A stretch of DNA of 42,855 nucleotides from Anaerolineae bacterium (GTDB taxonomy: Bacteria; Chloroflexota; Anaerolineae; B4-G1; DUEL01), in the NCBI GenBank assembly GCA_034435875.1, contig DAOTWL010000188.1, positions 1 through 42,855 of the forward strand, in the 5' to 3' direction. The position numbers and the translations under genes were made by a program. Positions 24,359-38,774 of the stretch are shown one piece after another; position 1 is the stretch's first letter, and every line of letters begins with the position of its first letter. The notes beneath the pieces were generated by a model, which was given only the letters and a program-made list of their open reading frames with translations, had not been told where the DNA came from and made no database searches.

Positions 24359-25267
24359 TTACCCATCCCGCTTCAGTTTCCCTGTCCGTTTGGCGTACTG
24401 CTCGGCCTGGTGGAAAATCGCCAGCCCCAGGGGGATGGAGACGATGCCCGCCAGCAACGTCGGCCAGAGATAGGGCCAGAGAGACGCCGTGGGCACGCCG
24501 TGCAGGATGGCCGCCCGCATCCCCTCCAGCACAAACGTCGCCGGGGAGACCCGCGCCAGCGGCTGTATCCAGGTCGGGAGCACCTCCACCGGGTAGTAGA
24601 CGCCGGAGATGAGCAGGAAGATGGCCTGGAGGACGTTGGTCATCTGCGCGCCTCGCTCCGGGAACAGCAATGGCAATACCGATGCGACGATGCCCAGTCC
24701 GATAAAGGAAAGACTCCCCGATAGAAGCACCACTGTTGCCCCCCAGAGGTTCGCCCCGCTCAGGTCCAGGTGGAAGAAGAGCACCACCACGCCCAGGATG
24801 ACCAGTGTGAAGAGCAGGCTGTAAGCCACGGCGAAGGCCGTCTGTCCCATCATATGGGTGAAGCGGGTAACGGGGGCCATCAGGGTGTACTCTATCGTCC
24901 CCTCCCACCGCTCCCAGGCAATCATCTCGCTGATGTTGTCAAAGATGAGGGCCAGGAAACGCCAGACCATGGTCCCGATGAGCAGGTAGAGGATAAGGTA
25001 GTTGGTGTCCACCTGCACGCCGGAGATGGCCTCCATCCCGGCGCCGATGTAGGTGATGGAGAGGGTGGTGGCGATGGAATATGCCAGCCAGACCGCCTCC
25101 CATCCCCAGTAGCGGCGCACCAGATTGAAGTTGCGCTCCACGAACGCGTAGGAAGCGCGGATCGCCCATCGCAGATCGCCAATCGCAGATCGCGGATCGC
25201 GGGTTGTAGGTCGCTTCTGACAGGTCGCAGGTAGATTGTCATATATCGCATTTTGCCTTTTGTTCAT
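24359..25267 (-). CDS. ABC-2 type transporter permease
   Basis: 302 aa with six TM segments. FVERNFNLVRRYWGWE...RVSPATFVLEGMRAAIL is typical of ABC-2 permeases. The N-terminal 35 aa include a heptamer-repeat-encoded low-complexity stretch. Confidence 0.85.
   Translation of the reverse strand: MNKRQNAIYDNLPATCQKRPTTRDPRSAIGDLRWAIRASYAFVERNFNLVRRYWGWEAVWLAYSIATTLSITYIGAGMEAISGVQVDTNYLILYLLIGTMVWRFLALIFDNISEMIAWERWEGTIEYTLMAPVTRFTHMMGQTAFAVAYSLLFTLVILGVVVLFFHLDLSGANLWGATVVLLSGSLSFIGLGIVASVLPLLFPERGAQMTNVLQAIFLLISGVYYPVEVLPTWIQPLARVSPATFVLEGMRAAILHGVPTASLWPYLWPTLLAGIVSIPLGLAIFHQAEQYAKRTGKLKRDG
25160..25201. repeat. tandem heptanucleotide array, 6 x (G/C/A)ATCGC(C/A/G), inside the permease 5' coding end
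   Basis: GATCGCC CATCGCA GATCGCC AATCGCA GATCGCG GATCGCG. Confidence 0.8.
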
Positions 25268-25307
25268 TGCGCGTCACTCCCCCGATCAAAACCGCCCTGT
25301 GGATAGC

Positions 25308-25384
25308 GGTCAGCCGGCAGTGGGCAGTCAGCAGCCTCAGTGATCGGTACTCTGTCGTCGGTGGTCAGTGGTCTGTCGTCGGTC
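25308..25384. repeat. degenerate tandem heptanucleotide array (about 11 units, GTC/CAG-GTG type)
   Basis: GGTCAGC CGGCAGT GGGCAGT CAGCAGC CTCAGTG ATCGGTA CTCTGTC GTCGGTG GTCAGTG GTCTGTC GTCGGTC. The array spans the GNAT-permease spacer and the last codons of the GNAT gene. Confidence 0.7.
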
Positions 25385-26306
25385 GTCTCCAGAACATCAG
25401 GTCGGTCTGGAATTCCAGGCCCAAGGCGGAGGCCAGAGTCCCGCCCTCCGGCTCTTCCAGAAGCAGGTCCACGTAGGCAAAGCCCAGTTGGGCCGCCAGG
25501 GCCTGCAGGGCCTCCACCGCCGGGCGCAGATCAGCCTCCGGCGGCGCCCAGACGAAACCGTCGGCCTGGGTGGGGGCCAGGGGTTGCGCCCGCAGCCCCA
25601 GCCAGACGGTCTCTCCGCCCGGCATGCGGGCCTGCCAGCGCCCCCAGGGGAGACGGGCCAATTCCGGCAGCGGCCGGTCGCCGATTTCGTGCCACATATG
25701 GCGCCCGGTCTGGTAGCGGCCCACCCGCAGCGCCAGCCCCTGCCTGGCGGGGTAAGGGGCATCATCGGCCCGGCACAGGTCGGCAGGGAGCGGCCCCTCC
25801 CGCGCCGGGGCCTGCCACTCCCGCAGCCATAGCCAGGGCTCAAACCCCATCCGGCGGTAGAACGGCTCCGCCTCCCGCTCCGGTTGGGTCGTGAGCGCTA
25901 CACAGCCCCGCTCCCGCGCCAGCGCGCCCCCCGCCTCCACCAGCGCCCGGCCTGCTCCCCGTCCCAGATGGGCCGCGTGGACGTAGAGGAGAGAAATGTG
26001 CAGGACGTGCCCGTACGGCGGCGGTTCATCGTCCTCCACGAACTCCGCCTCGCCCACCCCCTCGTCCCCCCGCAGGGCGACCCGGGCCAGATGGCCCGCT
26101 CCCAGCCAGCGCCGGAGGTGCGCCGCGCAGGTCTCCACACTCATCCACGGGCCGCCGTGGAGCCACCGCTCGTACAGGGAGAGGGCTTCGTAGGGGACCG
26201 GCTCCCCCTTCCCGCCCCGCCGCCAGACCCGGATGTGGCTGCAGTGGACGGCGGTGATGGCGGCCGCGTCCTCGGGCGTCGCCGGACGGATGGTCAACCC
26301 GTTCAT
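25365..26306 (-). CDS. GNAT family N-acetyltransferase with a C-terminal extension of about 150 aa and unknown function
   Basis: MNGLTIRPATPEDAAAITAV...LLYVHAAHLGRGAGRALVEAGGALARERGCVALTTQPEREAEPFYRRMGF is the GNAT core. Residues from about 165 to 313 are unrecognised. ATGA overlap with the ATPase stop. Confidence 0.8.
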   Translation of the reverse strand: MNGLTIRPATPEDAAAITAVHCSHIRVWRRGGKGEPVPYEALSLYERWLHGGPWMSVETCAAHLRRWLGAGHLARVALRGDEGVGEAEFVEDDEPPPYGHVLHISLLYVHAAHLGRGAGRALVEAGGALARERGCVALTTQPEREAEPFYRRMGFEPWLWLREWQAPAREGPLPADLCRADDAPYPARQGLALRVGRYQTGRHMWHEIGDRPLPELARLPWGRWQARMPGGETVWLGLRAQPLAPTQADGFVWAPPEADLRPAVEALQALAAQLGFAYVDLLLEEPEGGTLASALGLEFQTDLMFWRRPTTDH

Positions 26307-27130
26307 CCTTCCTCCTGCAGCTGTTTTCCCGTCAGTTCCATGAAAACATCCTCCAGCGTCACATCGTGGCCGTTAGCCACTCCAACGTGCGCTTTCAGCG
26401 CGCCGGGAGTGTCCAGGGCGATGATGCGCCCGTCATCTATGATGGCCACCCGGTCGCAGAGGGCGTCCGCCTCCTGCATATCGTGCGTGGTCAGGAGGAT
26501 AGTGGCGTCGTGGCTATCCCGCAGTTCCCGCACGAATGCTTGGACCTCTCGCTTGGACCGGGGGTCCAGCCCGGTGGTCGGCTCGTCCAGCAGGAGCAGG
26601 ACCGGCCGGGTGAGGAAAGCGCGAGCGATGGCGACCTTCTGCTGCATCCCCCGGCTCATCTCCTCCATCGGCTGGAAGACCTCATCCCGCTTTAGGCCCA
26701 GACGGGTGAGGATATAGAGGGCGCGCTCCCGGGCCTGACGGCCGTCCAGCCCGTAGAGGCGGGCGCCGTAGAGGAGGTTCTCCATCGCCGAGAGTTTCTT
26801 GAAGAAGGACGCCTCCGCCGAGACGCGGTTGATGAGCCGCCGGACGGCCATTTCCTCTCGCACGACGTCATGGCCGAAGACGGTTATCTGGCCAGAATCG
26901 GGCAGGAGGAGGGTGGCGATGAGCCGCACCAGCGTGGACTTGCCGGAGCCATTGGGGCCCAGAATGCCGAAAATCTCCCCCCGTTCCACCTGAAAACTGA
27001 CGCGATCCACGGCGACAATGACGGATGGGGCCGCGTCTGCCCATTTCCGCAGGTGGAAGAACCGGTTATGTTTGCGGAACCGCTTGGTGACTTCGGATAC
27101 GACGACGGCAGTGCGGATGTTTTCGTACAT
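26303..27130 (-). CDS. ABC transporter ATP-binding protein (DrrA/ABC-2 subfamily)
   Basis: Walker A GPNGSGKST, signature SRGMQQK, Walker B LLLLDEPTTGLD and H-loop TTHDM. ATG 27130 has SD GAGGGAGA, inside ORF 26303..27220. Confidence 0.92.
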   Translation of the reverse strand: MYENIRTAVVVSEVTKRFRKHNRFFHLRKWADAAPSVIVAVDRVSFQVERGEIFGILGPNGSGKSTLVRLIATLLLPDSGQITVFGHDVVREEMAVRRLINRVSAEASFFKKLSAMENLLYGARLYGLDGRQARERALYILTRLGLKRDEVFQPMEEMSRGMQQKVAIARAFLTRPVLLLLDEPTTGLDPRSKREVQAFVRELRDSHDATILLTTHDMQEADALCDRVAIIDDGRIIALDTPGALKAHVGVANGHDVTLEDVFMELTGKQLQEEG

Positions 27131-27174
27131 CTTCTCCCTCGGGATGGTAGCCGCAGAATATGTCTGGATAGACA

Positions 27175-27205
27175 GCGAGGCCGTGGTGGAGTCCCACGGC
27201 CTCGC
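27175..27205 (-). promoter_or_regulatory. 12-bp perfect hairpin in the 5' leader of the ABC operon
   Basis: GCGAGGCCGTGG (27175-27186) pairs with CCACGGCCTCGC (27194-27205). It shares the GGCCGTGG/CCACGGCC core with the terminator just upstream, so alternative pairing is possible. Confidence 0.5.
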
Positions 27206-27214
27206 GCGGTGGAG

Positions 27215-27253
27215 AAACAAAAAGGCCGTGGGCTCCCGCAGGCGCCCACGGCC
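27215..27253 (-). terminator. intrinsic terminator on the minus strand, between the sORF and the ABC operon
   Basis: On the minus strand GGCCGTGGGC-10 nt-GCCCACGGCC (27224-27253) is followed by TTTTTGTTTCTCC. Confidence 0.65.
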
Positions 27254-27269
27254 TTAAGTATTATTTCAA

Positions 27270-27365
27270 TTACCAACCGGGTGGCGCACTGCGGCAAGGC
27301 ATGCTGGCAGCATTGCTGCACAGCACAGGAACTCCGATCATCCAGGAAGTCGTCGCAATGCGCAT
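27270..27365 (-). CDS. candidate 31-aa small ORF (MRIATTSWMIGVPVLCSNAASMPCRSAPPGW), or a non-coding structured leader
   Basis: Found by manual translation; it is too short for the ORF track. SD GAGGAG (27374-27379) lies 8 nt before ATG 27365, the stop TAA is at 27270-27272, and the terminator stem begins 16 nt later. Codon usage is not GC3-rich, unlike the host genes, so coding status is uncertain. Confidence 0.35.
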   Translation of the reverse strand: MRIATTSWMIGVPVLCSNAASMPCRSAPPGW

Positions 27366-27395
27366 CTGGCCTGCTCCTCAGTGGTTTTGTCTTCT

Positions 27396-27423
27396 ATTTT
27401 ACTCCGATTCGGATAATTGTCAA
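27396..27423 (-). promoter_or_regulatory. near-consensus promoter, TTGACA-16 nt-TAAAAT (minus strand)
   Basis: TTGACA is the reverse complement of 27418-27423 and TAAAAT of 27396-27401. The predicted transcription start is near 27389. Confidence 0.55.
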
Positions 27424-27436
27424 ATCAGAATGGCGC

Positions 27437-27465
27437 TTGCCACCTCCGATTCCAAATGGTATAAT
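27437..27465 (+). promoter_or_regulatory. promoter, TTGCCA-17 nt-TATAAT (plus strand), back to back with the minus-strand promoter
   Basis: TTGCCA at 27437-27442 and TATAAT at 27460-27465. It points toward the DedA gene through a repeat-containing leader of about 320 nt. Confidence 0.5.
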
Positions 27466-27518
27466 CCTGCCATCCGAGAAAAGTCCACCTGTGCAGTCAT
27501 GGACGCCGTTTTCAGAAA

Positions 27519-27672
27519 GCCTCTCCCCCCTTGCCCCCTCCCCGTTGCCGCTGCGCGGCATGGGGAGGAAGGAGACAACGGGGGTTGGGGGCGGCGGCCT
27601 CCGGCTGCCGCCCCCAACCCCCTCCTTTCTCTTCTCCCCGCTGGCGGGAGAGATGGAGGGGGTCTCCTCCCG
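27519..27672. repeat. family A-related GC-rich palindromic element
   Basis: It reads CCCCTTGCCCCCTCCCC...GGGGGTTGGGGGCGGCGGCCTCCGGCTGCCGCCCCCAACCCCC...GGAGGGGGTCTCC, with a long central hairpin. Confidence 0.5.
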
Positions 27673-27792
27673 TTTCGGTGTAAAGGGGGCAGGAGGATGA
27701 GGAGGGGTAAACCGCTGCCCGCCCATTAAGGAATACCCGCCTCAACCGCACAGGTGGAAAAAGTTACAGACCGAAACCATCAAAGGAGTCCT

Positions 27793-28452
27793 ATGGAAGC
27801 AATAGAAACCGCTATTGTGGAATTTCTCCATTCCGTTCTGAACGCCATCGGCTGGCCGGGGGTCGTGCTGATTATGGCGCTGGAGAGCGCCAATATCCCC
27901 ATCCCCAGCGAAGTAACGATGCCGCTGGCCGGATGGATGCTGGTCCAGGCAAAGGGATGGCCTCTCTGGCAGGCCGTTCTGGACGGCGGCTTTTACGGTG
28001 GGCTGGGGTGTACCATCGGCTCTATCGCCTCCTACTTGCTGGGCATGTGGGGAGGGCGGCCCTTCCTCCAGCGCTGGGGCCGGTACATCCTCATCTCTCG
28101 GCACGACCTGGAGCAGGCCGACCGCTGGTTTGCCCGCTGGGGCGATTGGGCCGTCTTTATCTCTCGCCTCCTGCCCATCATGCGCACATTCATCTCCTTC
28201 CCTGCCGGCGTTGTCCGGGTTCCGCTTATTCGGTTCACCGTCCTCAGTTTCATCGGCTCCTTCATCTGGTGCGCCGCGCTGGCCGCCGCAGGCCACGCCT
28301 TCGGGAGCGAATGGGAGCGCATCCGGGAAATCATGCGCCCCTTTGACATCCCCATCGCCATCGCTATTCTGGCTGGCCTGGGCTACTACATCTACCGGCA
28401 CATCCGCCGGGCCCAGACCCCCATCGCTGCCGGAGAGGGCGAACCGGTATAA
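27793..28452 (+). CDS. DedA family membrane protein
   Basis: WPGVVLIMALESANIPIPSEVTMPLAG...GRPFLQRWGRY...RWFARWGDWAVFISRLLPIMRTFISFPAG is canonical DedA/SNARE-associated. ATG 27793 has SD AAAGGAG. Confidence 0.9.
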   Translation: MEAIETAIVEFLHSVLNAIGWPGVVLIMALESANIPIPSEVTMPLAGWMLVQAKGWPLWQAVLDGGFYGGLGCTIGSIASYLLGMWGGRPFLQRWGRYILISRHDLEQADRWFARWGDWAVFISRLLPIMRTFISFPAGVVRVPLIRFTVLSFIGSFIWCAALAAAGHAFGSEWERIREIMRPFDIPIAIAILAGLGYYIYRHIRRAQTPIAAGEGEPV

Positions 28453-38696: not shown

Positions 38697-38774
38697 CGGG
38701 GCGTGGCGCAGTTTGGCTAGCGCGCTACAATGGGGTTGTAGAGGCCGACGGTTCAAATCCGTCCGCCCCGACCA
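38697..38774 (+). tRNA. tRNA-Pro (anticodon GGG), CCA encoded
   Basis: Manual cloverleaf: acceptor stem CGGGGCG/CGCCCCG, D stem GCGC/GCGC, anticodon stem CTACA/TGTAG with loop AUGGGGU (U33, GGG, G37), T stem GACGG/CCGTC with loop TTCAAAT, discriminator A, then CCA. Confidence 0.93.

Follow-up and report, generated by a model that had tools for sequence, protein, structure and literature searches.

The stretch at positions 27175-27425 on the minus strand of the window, by which we mean the whole 42.9-kb piece of Anaerolineae DNA that was analysed, is a putative control region, previously uncatalogued and widely conserved in the Chloroflexota. We propose that it is the leader of a DrrAB-like ABC-2 exporter operon and that it probably acts as a ribosome-mediated (leader-peptide) transcription attenuator. 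Leader-peptide attenuation is a known type of mechanism; what is new here would probably be the use of the initiation region as a pairing partner and the presence of twin, look-alike terminators. To our knowledge, hardly any experimental work has addressed gene regulation in the Chloroflexota, and very few cis-regulatory RNAs have been described from this phylum. The leader spans several classes of the phylum and at least four kinds of operon and therefore offers a handle on a regulon, whose signal is possibly translation stress or natural antibiotics.

A conserved leader upstream of an exporter operon

[quoted passage not shown] The promoter (27396-27423) consists of a -35 element TTGACA (27423-27418), a 16-nt spacer and a -10 element TAAAAT (27401-27396) and matches the consensus at 11 of 12 positions, while a 2-kb promoter scan returned three promoter-like sites against 0.5 expected. 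Homologues carry TTGACA-16/17-TAnAAT at the equivalent relative position, and transcription would start near 27389. The SD sequence GAGGAG (27374-27379) lies 8 nt 5' of the ATG at 27365 that opens the leader ORF (27270-27365), whose 31 codons are followed by TAA at 27272-27270 and encode MRIATTSWMIGVPVLCSNAASMPCRSAPPGW; we predict that this ORF is translated. The claim that the region is much richer in AT than its surroundings stood in part, as its GC content is indeed lower (0.50-0.57 versus 0.60-0.75 nearby), but the contrast is only moderate.

The operon that the leader would regulate (24359-27140, minus strand) begins with the SD sequence GAGGGAG (27140-27134) of the ATPase gene (27130-26303, ABC_tran match), continues with the GNAT gene (26306-25365, GNAT match) and the permease gene (25267-24359, ABC2_membrane match), and is limited on its 3' side by a convergent gene. 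Among NCBIfam models the ATPase and the permease are nearest to the DrrA and DrrB subfamilies, both below the cut-off, and the GNATs gave weak AAC(6')/STAT-like matches, also below the cut-off; neither the permease nor the GNAT yielded a clue to function in PDB sequence searches. The leader is constantly accompanied by the ATPase-permease pair, with the GNAT optional and missing from most operons. In metagenomes, leaders also precede GNAT, HAD-hydrolase and methyltransferase genes, and these HAD, methyltransferase and GNAT-only operons contain no exporter. The downstream genes thus form what looks like a detoxification-like set. The exporter itself is unusually conserved across classes (63-93% amino acid identity), as would be expected of a housekeeping function more than of a drug pump.

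About 68 of 80 Chloroflexota genomes carry the leader ahead of the orthologous DrrA/DrrB-like ABC-2 exporter. It is conserved in MAGs bearing the labels Thermoflexales/Thermoflexia, Anaerolineae, Ardenticatenia and Dehalococcoidia, and 62 full-length homologues of the unit were collected. Within these orthologous operons the leader frame and its covarying helices are conserved, and the conserved block runs from the -35 element through the second hairpin, 5' of the orthologous ATPase gene. Its flanks, namely the upstream intergenic region and the neighbouring DedA gene, are not conserved beside the leader elsewhere. A metagenome pattern scan with GCAGTGCGCC-N20-50-GGCCGTGGG returned mostly chance matches, 14 of its 120 loci being true leaders by nhmmer.

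The 271-nt stretch is more stable than its shuffles (z = -4.9; none of 200 shuffles equally stable), and the feature stands above chance because the whole unit recurs in the 62 full-length homologues. In Rfam 15, the sole match in the window at gathering thresholds is a tRNA outside the leader, and at E values up to 10 the matches within 27171-27425 reach 16-22 bits, where the thresholds are 40-70. The possibility that the region is a degenerate copy of a local repeat family, or a REP-like element, was rejected, as both nhmmer and a covariance model found a single copy in the window, the GGCCGTGGG word is not over-represented there (53 matches versus 47.7 expected) and the unit is conserved in homologues.

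The presence and position of a short, SD-led ORF is kept, as in leader-peptide attenuators. Such an ORF, of 27-35 codons, occurs in 55 of the 62 homologues, where shuffles lead to an expectation of 0.54 and the antisense strand yields none in 62; the SD sequence, the start codon, the ORF length and the position of the stop are all conserved, the stop codon in these 55 lying 0-21 nt past the segment designated region 2 below and 13-33 nt before the terminator T1.

Alternative pairings in the leader RNA

RNAalifold on a MAFFT alignment recovered only the two terminator-like hairpins, T1 and T2; the pairings of the long-range helix P1, of the proposed antiterminator and of a helix between the two hairpins (helix X) were specified by hand and then counted across the homologues. 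The co-variation statistics given here are raw counts over homologues and ignore their kinship. Strongly conserved nucleotides occur only within the switching helices, and invariant alignment columns are limited to region 2, T1 and T2.

T1 (27215-27255) has the form of an intrinsic terminator; it comes after the leader ORF, 16 nt past the stop codon, and precedes the first structural gene. Its 15-nt arms (27255-27241 and 27236-27222) are 93% complementary and TTTTTGTTT follows directly, the U tract occupying 27223-27215. Across the homologues the stem is GC-rich and 12-15 bp long, and all 62 of the 62 have a U-rich tail; pairing holds in 93.8-94.8% of alignment cells, with compensatory change at 8 of the 12 pairs, kinship ignored. 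A simple terminator scan did not report T1, presumably because of the stem mismatch near its loop.

Region 2, UGCCGCAGUGCGCC (27283-27296), spans codons 24-28 of the ORF and is the most conserved segment of the leader. It serves as the 3' strand of P1 and, in the proposed antiterminator, as the 5' strand. In P1 (27363-27354 with 27293-27284), which is seen both in the sequence and in the fold, it pairs with region 1, GCGCAUUGCGACG (27351-27363), a segment that overlaps the leader start codon and the first codons. P1 is paired in 76-84% of cells, with compensatory change in 9 of 13 pairs (homologue alignment, kinship ignored). Distant homologues have the equivalent strand, GGCGCA, between the SD sequence and the AUG, so the first pairing partner is always within the translation-initiation region. 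From region 1 to region 2 the sequence is variable and only the ability to form a hairpin is kept; in the window this hairpin is P2 (27301-27326; GUGCUG-U-GCAGC AAU GCUGC CAGCAU), and nearly all homologues have one at this position with differing stem sequences (median z -1.6; 37% below -2).

The alternative partner of region 2 is region 3, GGGCGCCUGCGGG (27235-27247), which comprises the upper 5' arm and the loop of T1. Their pairing, 12 bp with one bulged U, is the proposed antiterminator. It is absent from the model used to build the alignment, and yet 83-91% of its cells are paired, as against 33-48% when the partners are slid; 26 cells are doubly changed against 7.1 +/- 2.2 in shuffles, kinship ignored, and the window's clade shows a compensatory change from a U-A to a C-G pair. 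Cognate pairs of regions are more stable than permuted ones, with z scores of -7.7 (antiterminator) and -6.8 (P1). Region 2 can thus pair with either region 1 or region 3, the two pairings are exclusive and conserved, and the leader ORF extends over the segment open to masking by a ribosome.

Folding of partial transcripts bears on how such a choice could be made. In nascent RNA that ends before the T1 3' arm, with region 1 blocked, 57 of 62 homologues pair regions 2 and 3. When region 1 is left free, the minimum-energy fold has the antiterminator, not P1, in 41 of 62, the window included, which makes the no-translation state of our model uncertain. In equilibrium folding with a 'ribosome' blocking various segments, T1 forms regardless; therefore, the switch must work kinetically. 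Only the top of the T1 5' arm and the loop are spanned by the antiterminator, which would leave the lower 8 bp of T1 able to pair.

The proposed mechanism and its rivals

We propose that the strong promoter would yield a leader RNA, about 175 nt long and usually terminated at T1, and that region 2 would choose between region 1, forming P1, and region 3, forming the antiterminator. With no ribosome loaded, P1 would form first, T1 would then fold and transcription would end. With the lead ribosome on pace and arrived at the stop codon, which lies 10 nt beyond region 2, region 2 would be covered and T1 would again fold and terminate transcription. A ribosome delayed at the start of the ORF, or anywhere within its first two-thirds, would block region 1 and leave region 2 free to capture region 3 ahead of the synthesis of the T1 3' arm, with read-through by RNA polymerase as the outcome. 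We infer both the kinetic order of folding and the assignment of the ON and OFF states. As the signal, our leading guess and most plausible candidate is a slowing of translation, such as ribosome-targeting compounds or antibiotics would cause.

In such a mechanism the leader ORF would act as a track for the ribosome, and its peptide is not conserved as a protein would be. Within the window's clade, the body of the ORF shows 109 nonsynonymous versus 22 synonymous codon differences and no third-position bias, and in nine homologues a different frame runs through the conserved GCAGUGCGCC of region 2, with its nucleotides unchanged. The majority of homologues share a peptide tail, ...(L/M)PCRSAP (RSAPP in the window), which is lost by the frame change in those nine, and because most homologues keep it the nascent peptide may play a role. 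The R-S-A-P ending resembles the R-A-P-P and R-A-G-P motifs of translation-arrest peptides such as SecM, ApdA and ApdP. The tail here, however, has an extra residue and is dictated by a conserved RNA segment, the genes downstream are not Sec or YidC, and an arrest at R-S-A-P would cover region 2 and so favour termination.

The same observations weigh against the reading in which the unit is an independent small gene, encoding an exported or modified 31-residue peptide (bacteriocin, RiPP or membrane peptide) or a trans-acting sRNA of about 175 nt, with read-through as an incidental event. A precursor or bacteriocin-like peptide, with the acetyltransferase in a modification or immunity role, was one of two readings offered by the earlier note, and such a gene could have the strong promoter, SD sequence, ORF and terminator of its own, as well as the common tail, that are seen here; leader peptides and attenuator RNAs that function in trans also exist, for example peTrpL and rnTrpL (PMC7298713, PMC7968998). 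Nevertheless, the peptide has no match in Pfam or NCBIfam, neither purifying selection nor a constant modifying enzyme was found, the tail gives way to the nucleotides beneath it, and the leader also heads operons of unrelated genes from which the exporter is missing. We therefore reject the bacteriocin or RiPP precursor, and regard an independent small gene of any kind as quite improbable.

The other reading of the earlier note, a riboswitch or attenuator, held up in its attenuator form through the conserved unit, the terminator and the co-varying exclusive pairings, with a ligand-binding riboswitch being less likely. If a ligand or an RNA-binding protein acting on P1-P2 or on the twin hairpins set the choice between P1 and the antiterminator, the ORF would be incidental or secondary. 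The arrangement of P1, P2 and a terminator with exclusive helices does resemble the expression platform of a transcriptional riboswitch, several unrelated detoxification-type genes lie behind the leader, as in riboswitch regulons, and the stem sequence GGCCGUGGGC is kept in two hairpins, where it might be a site of protein recognition. However, the sequence that would have to form the ligand pocket, between regions 1 and 2, is the part that varies, with no invariant core in junctions or loops; the ORF and its signals are kept far above chance and a riboswitch needs none of them; and no Rfam family matched even at the relaxed threshold. The loops of the twin hairpins range from about 4 to 25 nt among the homologues, and arm changes are compensatory in both hairpins, so that pairing fits better than sequence-specific recognition. 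We consider control by a ligand or a protein unlikely.

In the trp, his and leu attenuators of Proteobacteria, segments 1 and 2 form an anti-antiterminator, segments 2 and 3 an antiterminator and segments 3 and 4 the terminator. The leader shares this four-segment logic, which is what speaks for a classical amino-acid-sensing attenuator, in which a stall at particular codons reports the charging of one tRNA; here, too, segment 2 would be covered by a ribosome that has reached the stop codon. Unlike the trp, his, leu, ilv and pheA leaders, it has no runs of regulating codons, no amino acid in its ORF being enriched more than about 2.5-fold, and it precedes transporters, acetyltransferases, hydrolases and methyltransferases in place of biosynthetic enzymes. 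On these two grounds the amino-acid biosynthetic attenuator was rejected, and we hold it to be highly improbable. The leader differs from the trp, his and leu leaders further in that its segment 1 is the start-codon and SD region, not the sensed codons, and in that it carries a twin terminator.

Antibiotic-inducible counterparts and a possible relay

Ribosome-mediated attenuation in front of an exporter has a precedent in the BmrB leader of the Bacillus subtilis bmrCD ABC exporter, which responds to protein-synthesis inhibitors (PMC4191407). There, a small translated ORF lies directly 5' of the exporter genes, alternative stem-loops include an intrinsic terminator and read-through is proposed to follow ribosome position (PMC4191407), an arrangement matched here with translation predicted. 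The two leaders nevertheless have no relationship in sequence or family; BmrCD is a type I heterodimeric exporter and not a DrrAB-like ABC-2 exporter, and its terminator lies inside the bmrB coding region. The leader described here, in addition, uses its own initiation region as the first pairing partner and has a second hairpin with arms identical to those of the terminator. Antibiotic-sensing leaders and upstream ORFs (uORFs) are known from further resistance genes, including vmlR (PMC9226507), msrD (PMC10314930) and the toiL uORF (PMC12121999), and have been reviewed (PMC5418344). They share with our leader a short uORF before efflux or modification genes, and ribosome stalling has been proposed to remodel the leader RNA; in contrast, they have defined stalling peptides or drug-specific contexts, whereas the peptide body is free to vary here, and they mostly precede ABC-F or erm/cat-type genes. 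With respect to antibiotic-inducible attenuators as a group (BmrB, vmlR, msrD, erm, cat), the gene context of exporter, GNATs and methyltransferase is suggestive. As an attenuator, the leader would be a compact example that pairs first with its own ribosome-binding region.

The re-use of the same arms by both hairpins, claimed in the earlier note and found to be exact, became the most unusual conserved feature of the leader. T2 (27175-27205) has T1-like arm sequences at 27205-27194 and 27186-27175, paired at 12 of 12 positions. CCCACGGCCT in the T1 3' arm (27232-27223) is the exact complement of AGGCCGTGGG in the T2 5' arm (27202-27193), and the two can form helix X (27193-27232), 10 bp with a 20-nt loop. 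Over the 62 homologues 96.5% of the cells of helix X are paired and 6 of its 10 pairs show compensatory change, kinship ignored. A U tract follows T2 in 49 of 62 homologues and is absent in the window and its clade, where the relay described next may therefore be vestigial or otherwise used.

In the ON state, the T1 3' arm, once freed, would pair with the T2 5' arm of identical sequence to form helix X; with the T2 5' arm captured in this way, one decision would disarm both hairpins. Extended to the whole family, this suggests a possible, though doubtful, picture in which one ribosome-position sensor controls two successive terminators by a strand-exchange relay and serves as the common cis-regulator of a translation-stress regulon spanning the Chloroflexota; the regulon, proposed jointly with the relay and just as tentatively, might comprise the ABC-2 exporter, GNATs, the HAD hydrolase and the methyltransferase. 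If true, the relay would give a very tight OFF state together with a coordinated ON state. We know of no described attenuator whose terminator arms are kept identical for such a relay. The twin arms have stayed identical across long evolutionary distances, which suggests a relay design, perhaps of use in engineering low-leak switches, and in four homologues (L036, L047, L052 and L055) the arms of T1 and T2 have been altered in concert.

Leader elements and their conservation

On the minus strand, read over 26900-27700, we found the leader elements that the earlier note had described. The promoter TTGACA-16-TAAAAT at 27423-27396 scores 11/12 and is one of three promoter-like sites in 2 kb, against 0.5 expected. 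It is followed by GAGGAG at 27379-27374, the ATG at 27365 after a gap of 8 nt, a frame coding for MRIATTSWMIGVPVLCSNAASMPCRSAPPGW with its stop at 27272-27270, the intrinsic terminator T1 (arms 27255-27241 and 27236-27222, then TTTTTGTTT) and a second hairpin, T2, a perfect 12-bp stem with arms at 27205-27194 and 27186-27175. The proposed re-use of hairpin arms was borne out, as a 10-nt run in the T1 3' arm has its exact complement in the T2 5' arm, and the predicted fold, which is more stable than 200/200 shuffles (z = -4.9), contains both the long-range helix P1 (27363-27354 with 27293-27284) and the internal hairpin P2 (27326-27301). The genes downstream encode an ABC ATPase, a GNAT and an ABC-2 permease, as had been read. 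The stretch had also been described as much more AT-rich than its surroundings; its GC content is indeed lower (0.50-0.57), but only moderately so against 0.60-0.75 nearby.

The ATPase is 89-93% identical in amino acids to its nearest MAGs, placing the window among Thermoflexales-like Chloroflexota. Between the -35 and T2, identity to the closest relatives is 85-89%, and the stretch can still be recognised well outside them. A profile built from 24 leaders, searched against 80 genome loci and the window, found a like-oriented copy ahead of the ATPase in ~68 of the 80 loci and exactly one copy in the window; a covariance model agreed with it, and 62 full-length homologues were obtained. Both the conserved upstream frame and the covarying helices that the earlier note had named as tests are present across the homologues. 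Neither the intergenic DNA farther upstream nor the divergent DedA gene is conserved alongside the leader. The word GGCCGTGGG is not over-represented within the window, which, together with the single leader copy there and the conservation of the leader in relatives, excludes a degenerate local repeat. In one close relative (L004:3609-4000), ~390 nt of tandem ~35-nt repeats (AATAAATCCGAGAGAATCTGCGTTTATCTGCGTCC) lie between T2 and the ATPase start. In L006, from a Thermoflexus sp. MAG, 155 nt (1-155) precede the orthologous ATPase before the contig ends; they contain G/C-rich polypurine repeats and lack a T2 hairpin, so the leader may have been displaced or lost.

Competing helices and twin hairpins

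The most conserved nucleotides are those of region 2 (UGYCGCAGUGCGCC), of T1 including its loop, and of the T2 stem. Region 1, the partner of region 2 in P1, always lies within the translation-initiation region of the leader; it overlaps the AUG in the window's and related clades (AUGCGCAYUGCGA), and in distant clades is GGCGCA, between SD and AUG. Region 2 is complementary also to the upper 5' arm and loop of T1 (region 3; GGCGC-CUGCGAC), which explains the conserved T1 loop. In the 24-sequence alignment P1 is 84% paired and the region 2-region 3 helix, the antiterminator, 91%, versus 33-48% with partners slid; the latter holds a compensatory U-A to C-G change marking the window's clade. Across 62 sequences, with an alignment model built without that helix, it is 83% paired and shows 26 doubly changed cells, where shuffles give 7.1 +/- 2.2. 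Compensatory changes occur at 9/13 pairs of P1, 8/12 of T1 and 7/11 of T2, helices to which the 62-sequence alignment was fitted. Lineage-specific compensation, for example, pairs GUACUGCGCC with GGGUGCAGUAC (L034), GGAG with CUCC (L027, L036) and GUAG with CUAC (L047, L052), and P1 reaches 14 bp in L039 and L031. Pairing is stronger for cognate than for permuted segments (z = -7.7 for the antiterminator and -6.8 for P1, with no control for phylogeny). In nascent RNA ending before the T1 3' arm, the antiterminator forms in 57/62 homologues when region 1 is blocked. Nearly all homologues carry P2 inside the ORF, with differing stem sequences. The suggestion of an attenuator or riboswitch leader is supported in its attenuator form by these mutually exclusive, covarying helices. 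No Rfam family matches the leader, either at gathering thresholds or with E relaxed to 10. The sole Rfam match in the window at gathering threshold is a tRNA gene at 38697-38771 (+).

A U-rich tail follows T1 in 62/62 homologues and T2 in 49/62, being absent after T2 in the window's clade. The arms of the two hairpins remain alike across homologues: both are GGCCACGGG...CCCGUGGCC instead of GGCCGUGGG...CCCACGGCC in L036, L047, L052 and L055, and both begin AGCC in L039, L031 and L040. Pairing in helix X, between the T1 3' arm and the T2 5' arm, is 96.5%, with compensatory change at 6/10 pairs. Because the hairpin loops differ greatly in length, a DNA operator for a dimeric protein is less likely.

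The leader frame and a proposed switch

An SD-led ORF of 27-35 codons starts at the same place in 55/62 homologues and stops 0-21 nt past the conserved GCAGUGCGCC segment, 13-33 nt ahead of T1; dinucleotide shuffles yield 0.54 such ORFs and the antisense strand 0. Codon differences in the ORF body of the window's clade are 109 nonsynonymous versus 22 synonymous, without third-position bias, and in 9 homologues an insertion or deletion puts the conserved segment into another frame, turning RSAP into SQCA or YCAC with the nucleotides unchanged. There are no codon runs, and no amino acid is enriched more than ~2.5-fold. The peptide is thus not conserved as a protein, and the reading frame appears to be kept as a track for ribosomes. 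This speaks against the bacteriocin or precursor peptide that the earlier note had offered as its other reading, and against an amino-acid attenuator. Between the leader stop codon and T1 (27272-27256 in the window, carrying UAAUUGAAAUAA), many homologues, e.g. L009, L010, L015, L017 and L019, have a small hairpin with UUGACAUAA. It gives stop codons in two reading frames right before T1, and looks as if it were a means of ending translation in any frame.

By analogy, we propose that the leader has the architecture of a trp-type attenuator. Without a ribosome, P1 (1:2) would form first, letting T1 (3:4) fold; a ribosome at the stop codon would cover the 3' half of region 2, and T1 would fold likewise. 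A ribosome held up at the start, or anywhere within the first two-thirds of the ORF, would block P1 and leave region 2 free for region 3. T1 would then be unable to nucleate, and its freed 3' arm could pair with the T2 5' arm, so that one decision would beat both terminators. Were T1 folded, T2 would fold as well, catching leak. In equilibrium folding T1 always wins, and therefore the switch must be kinetic. Two further features weigh on this model: the lower T1 stem lies outside the antiterminator, and even when region 1 is available the antiterminator is often the pairing of lowest energy. The lack of regulatory codons and the detoxification-like gene set (exporter, acetyltransferases, methyltransferase, hydrolase) point to slowed translation, e.g. 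by ribosome-targeting compounds, as the most plausible signal, for which BmrB-bmrCD (PMC4191407) and other antibiotic-sensing leaders (PMC9226507, PMC10314930, PMC12121999, PMC5418344) are precedents. By its sequence features the leader fits the leader-peptide attenuator class; it belongs to no catalogued family. Unlike in classical and antibiotic-sensing attenuators, segment 1 is the leader's own initiation region, there is no defined stalling peptide or codon run, and a second hairpin has arms held identical to those of the terminator. We did not find this leader described in the literature on Chloroflexi leader peptides or tandem-terminator attenuators.

Genes behind and beside the leader

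The ATPase and permease of the operon, which ends at a convergent gene, are nearest to the DrrA and DrrB subfamilies and are the constant partners of the leader; the GNAT is present in some lineages only, either between the two or ahead of both. A DNA-pattern scan of metagenomes returned largely noise, with 14 true leaders. Among the metagenome loci, the leader precedes two tandem double-domain GNATs and then an SDR (short-chain dehydrogenase), a HAD hydrolase and then a weak MFS-like fragment, a class I SAM methyltransferase, or a truncated membrane protein (loci with non-exporter genes: L142, L168, L151, L178, L172, L108, L141). As several metagenome leaders precede other genes, the leader is a cis-element common to several operons, which suggests a multi-operon regulon under one leader type. 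Across Chloroflexota classes the DrrA-like ATPase of the operon (operon at 24359-27130 in the window; loci L001-L080) shares 63-93% identity. Such conservation is uncommonly strong for a putative drug exporter and hints at a core or housekeeping function.

Back to back with the leader promoter stands a promoter-like site (TTGCCA-17-TATAAT, 27437-27465) belonging to the divergent DedA/VTT gene (27754-28452, +). Within 27437-27753 (+), and notably at 27580-27622, the ~280-nt 5' region of this gene contains a 20-bp G/C hairpin and then a T-rich run; the hairpin was scored terminator-like by the scan and is flanked by polypurine/polypyrimidine direct repeats. It may represent another attenuator, or else a repeat element.
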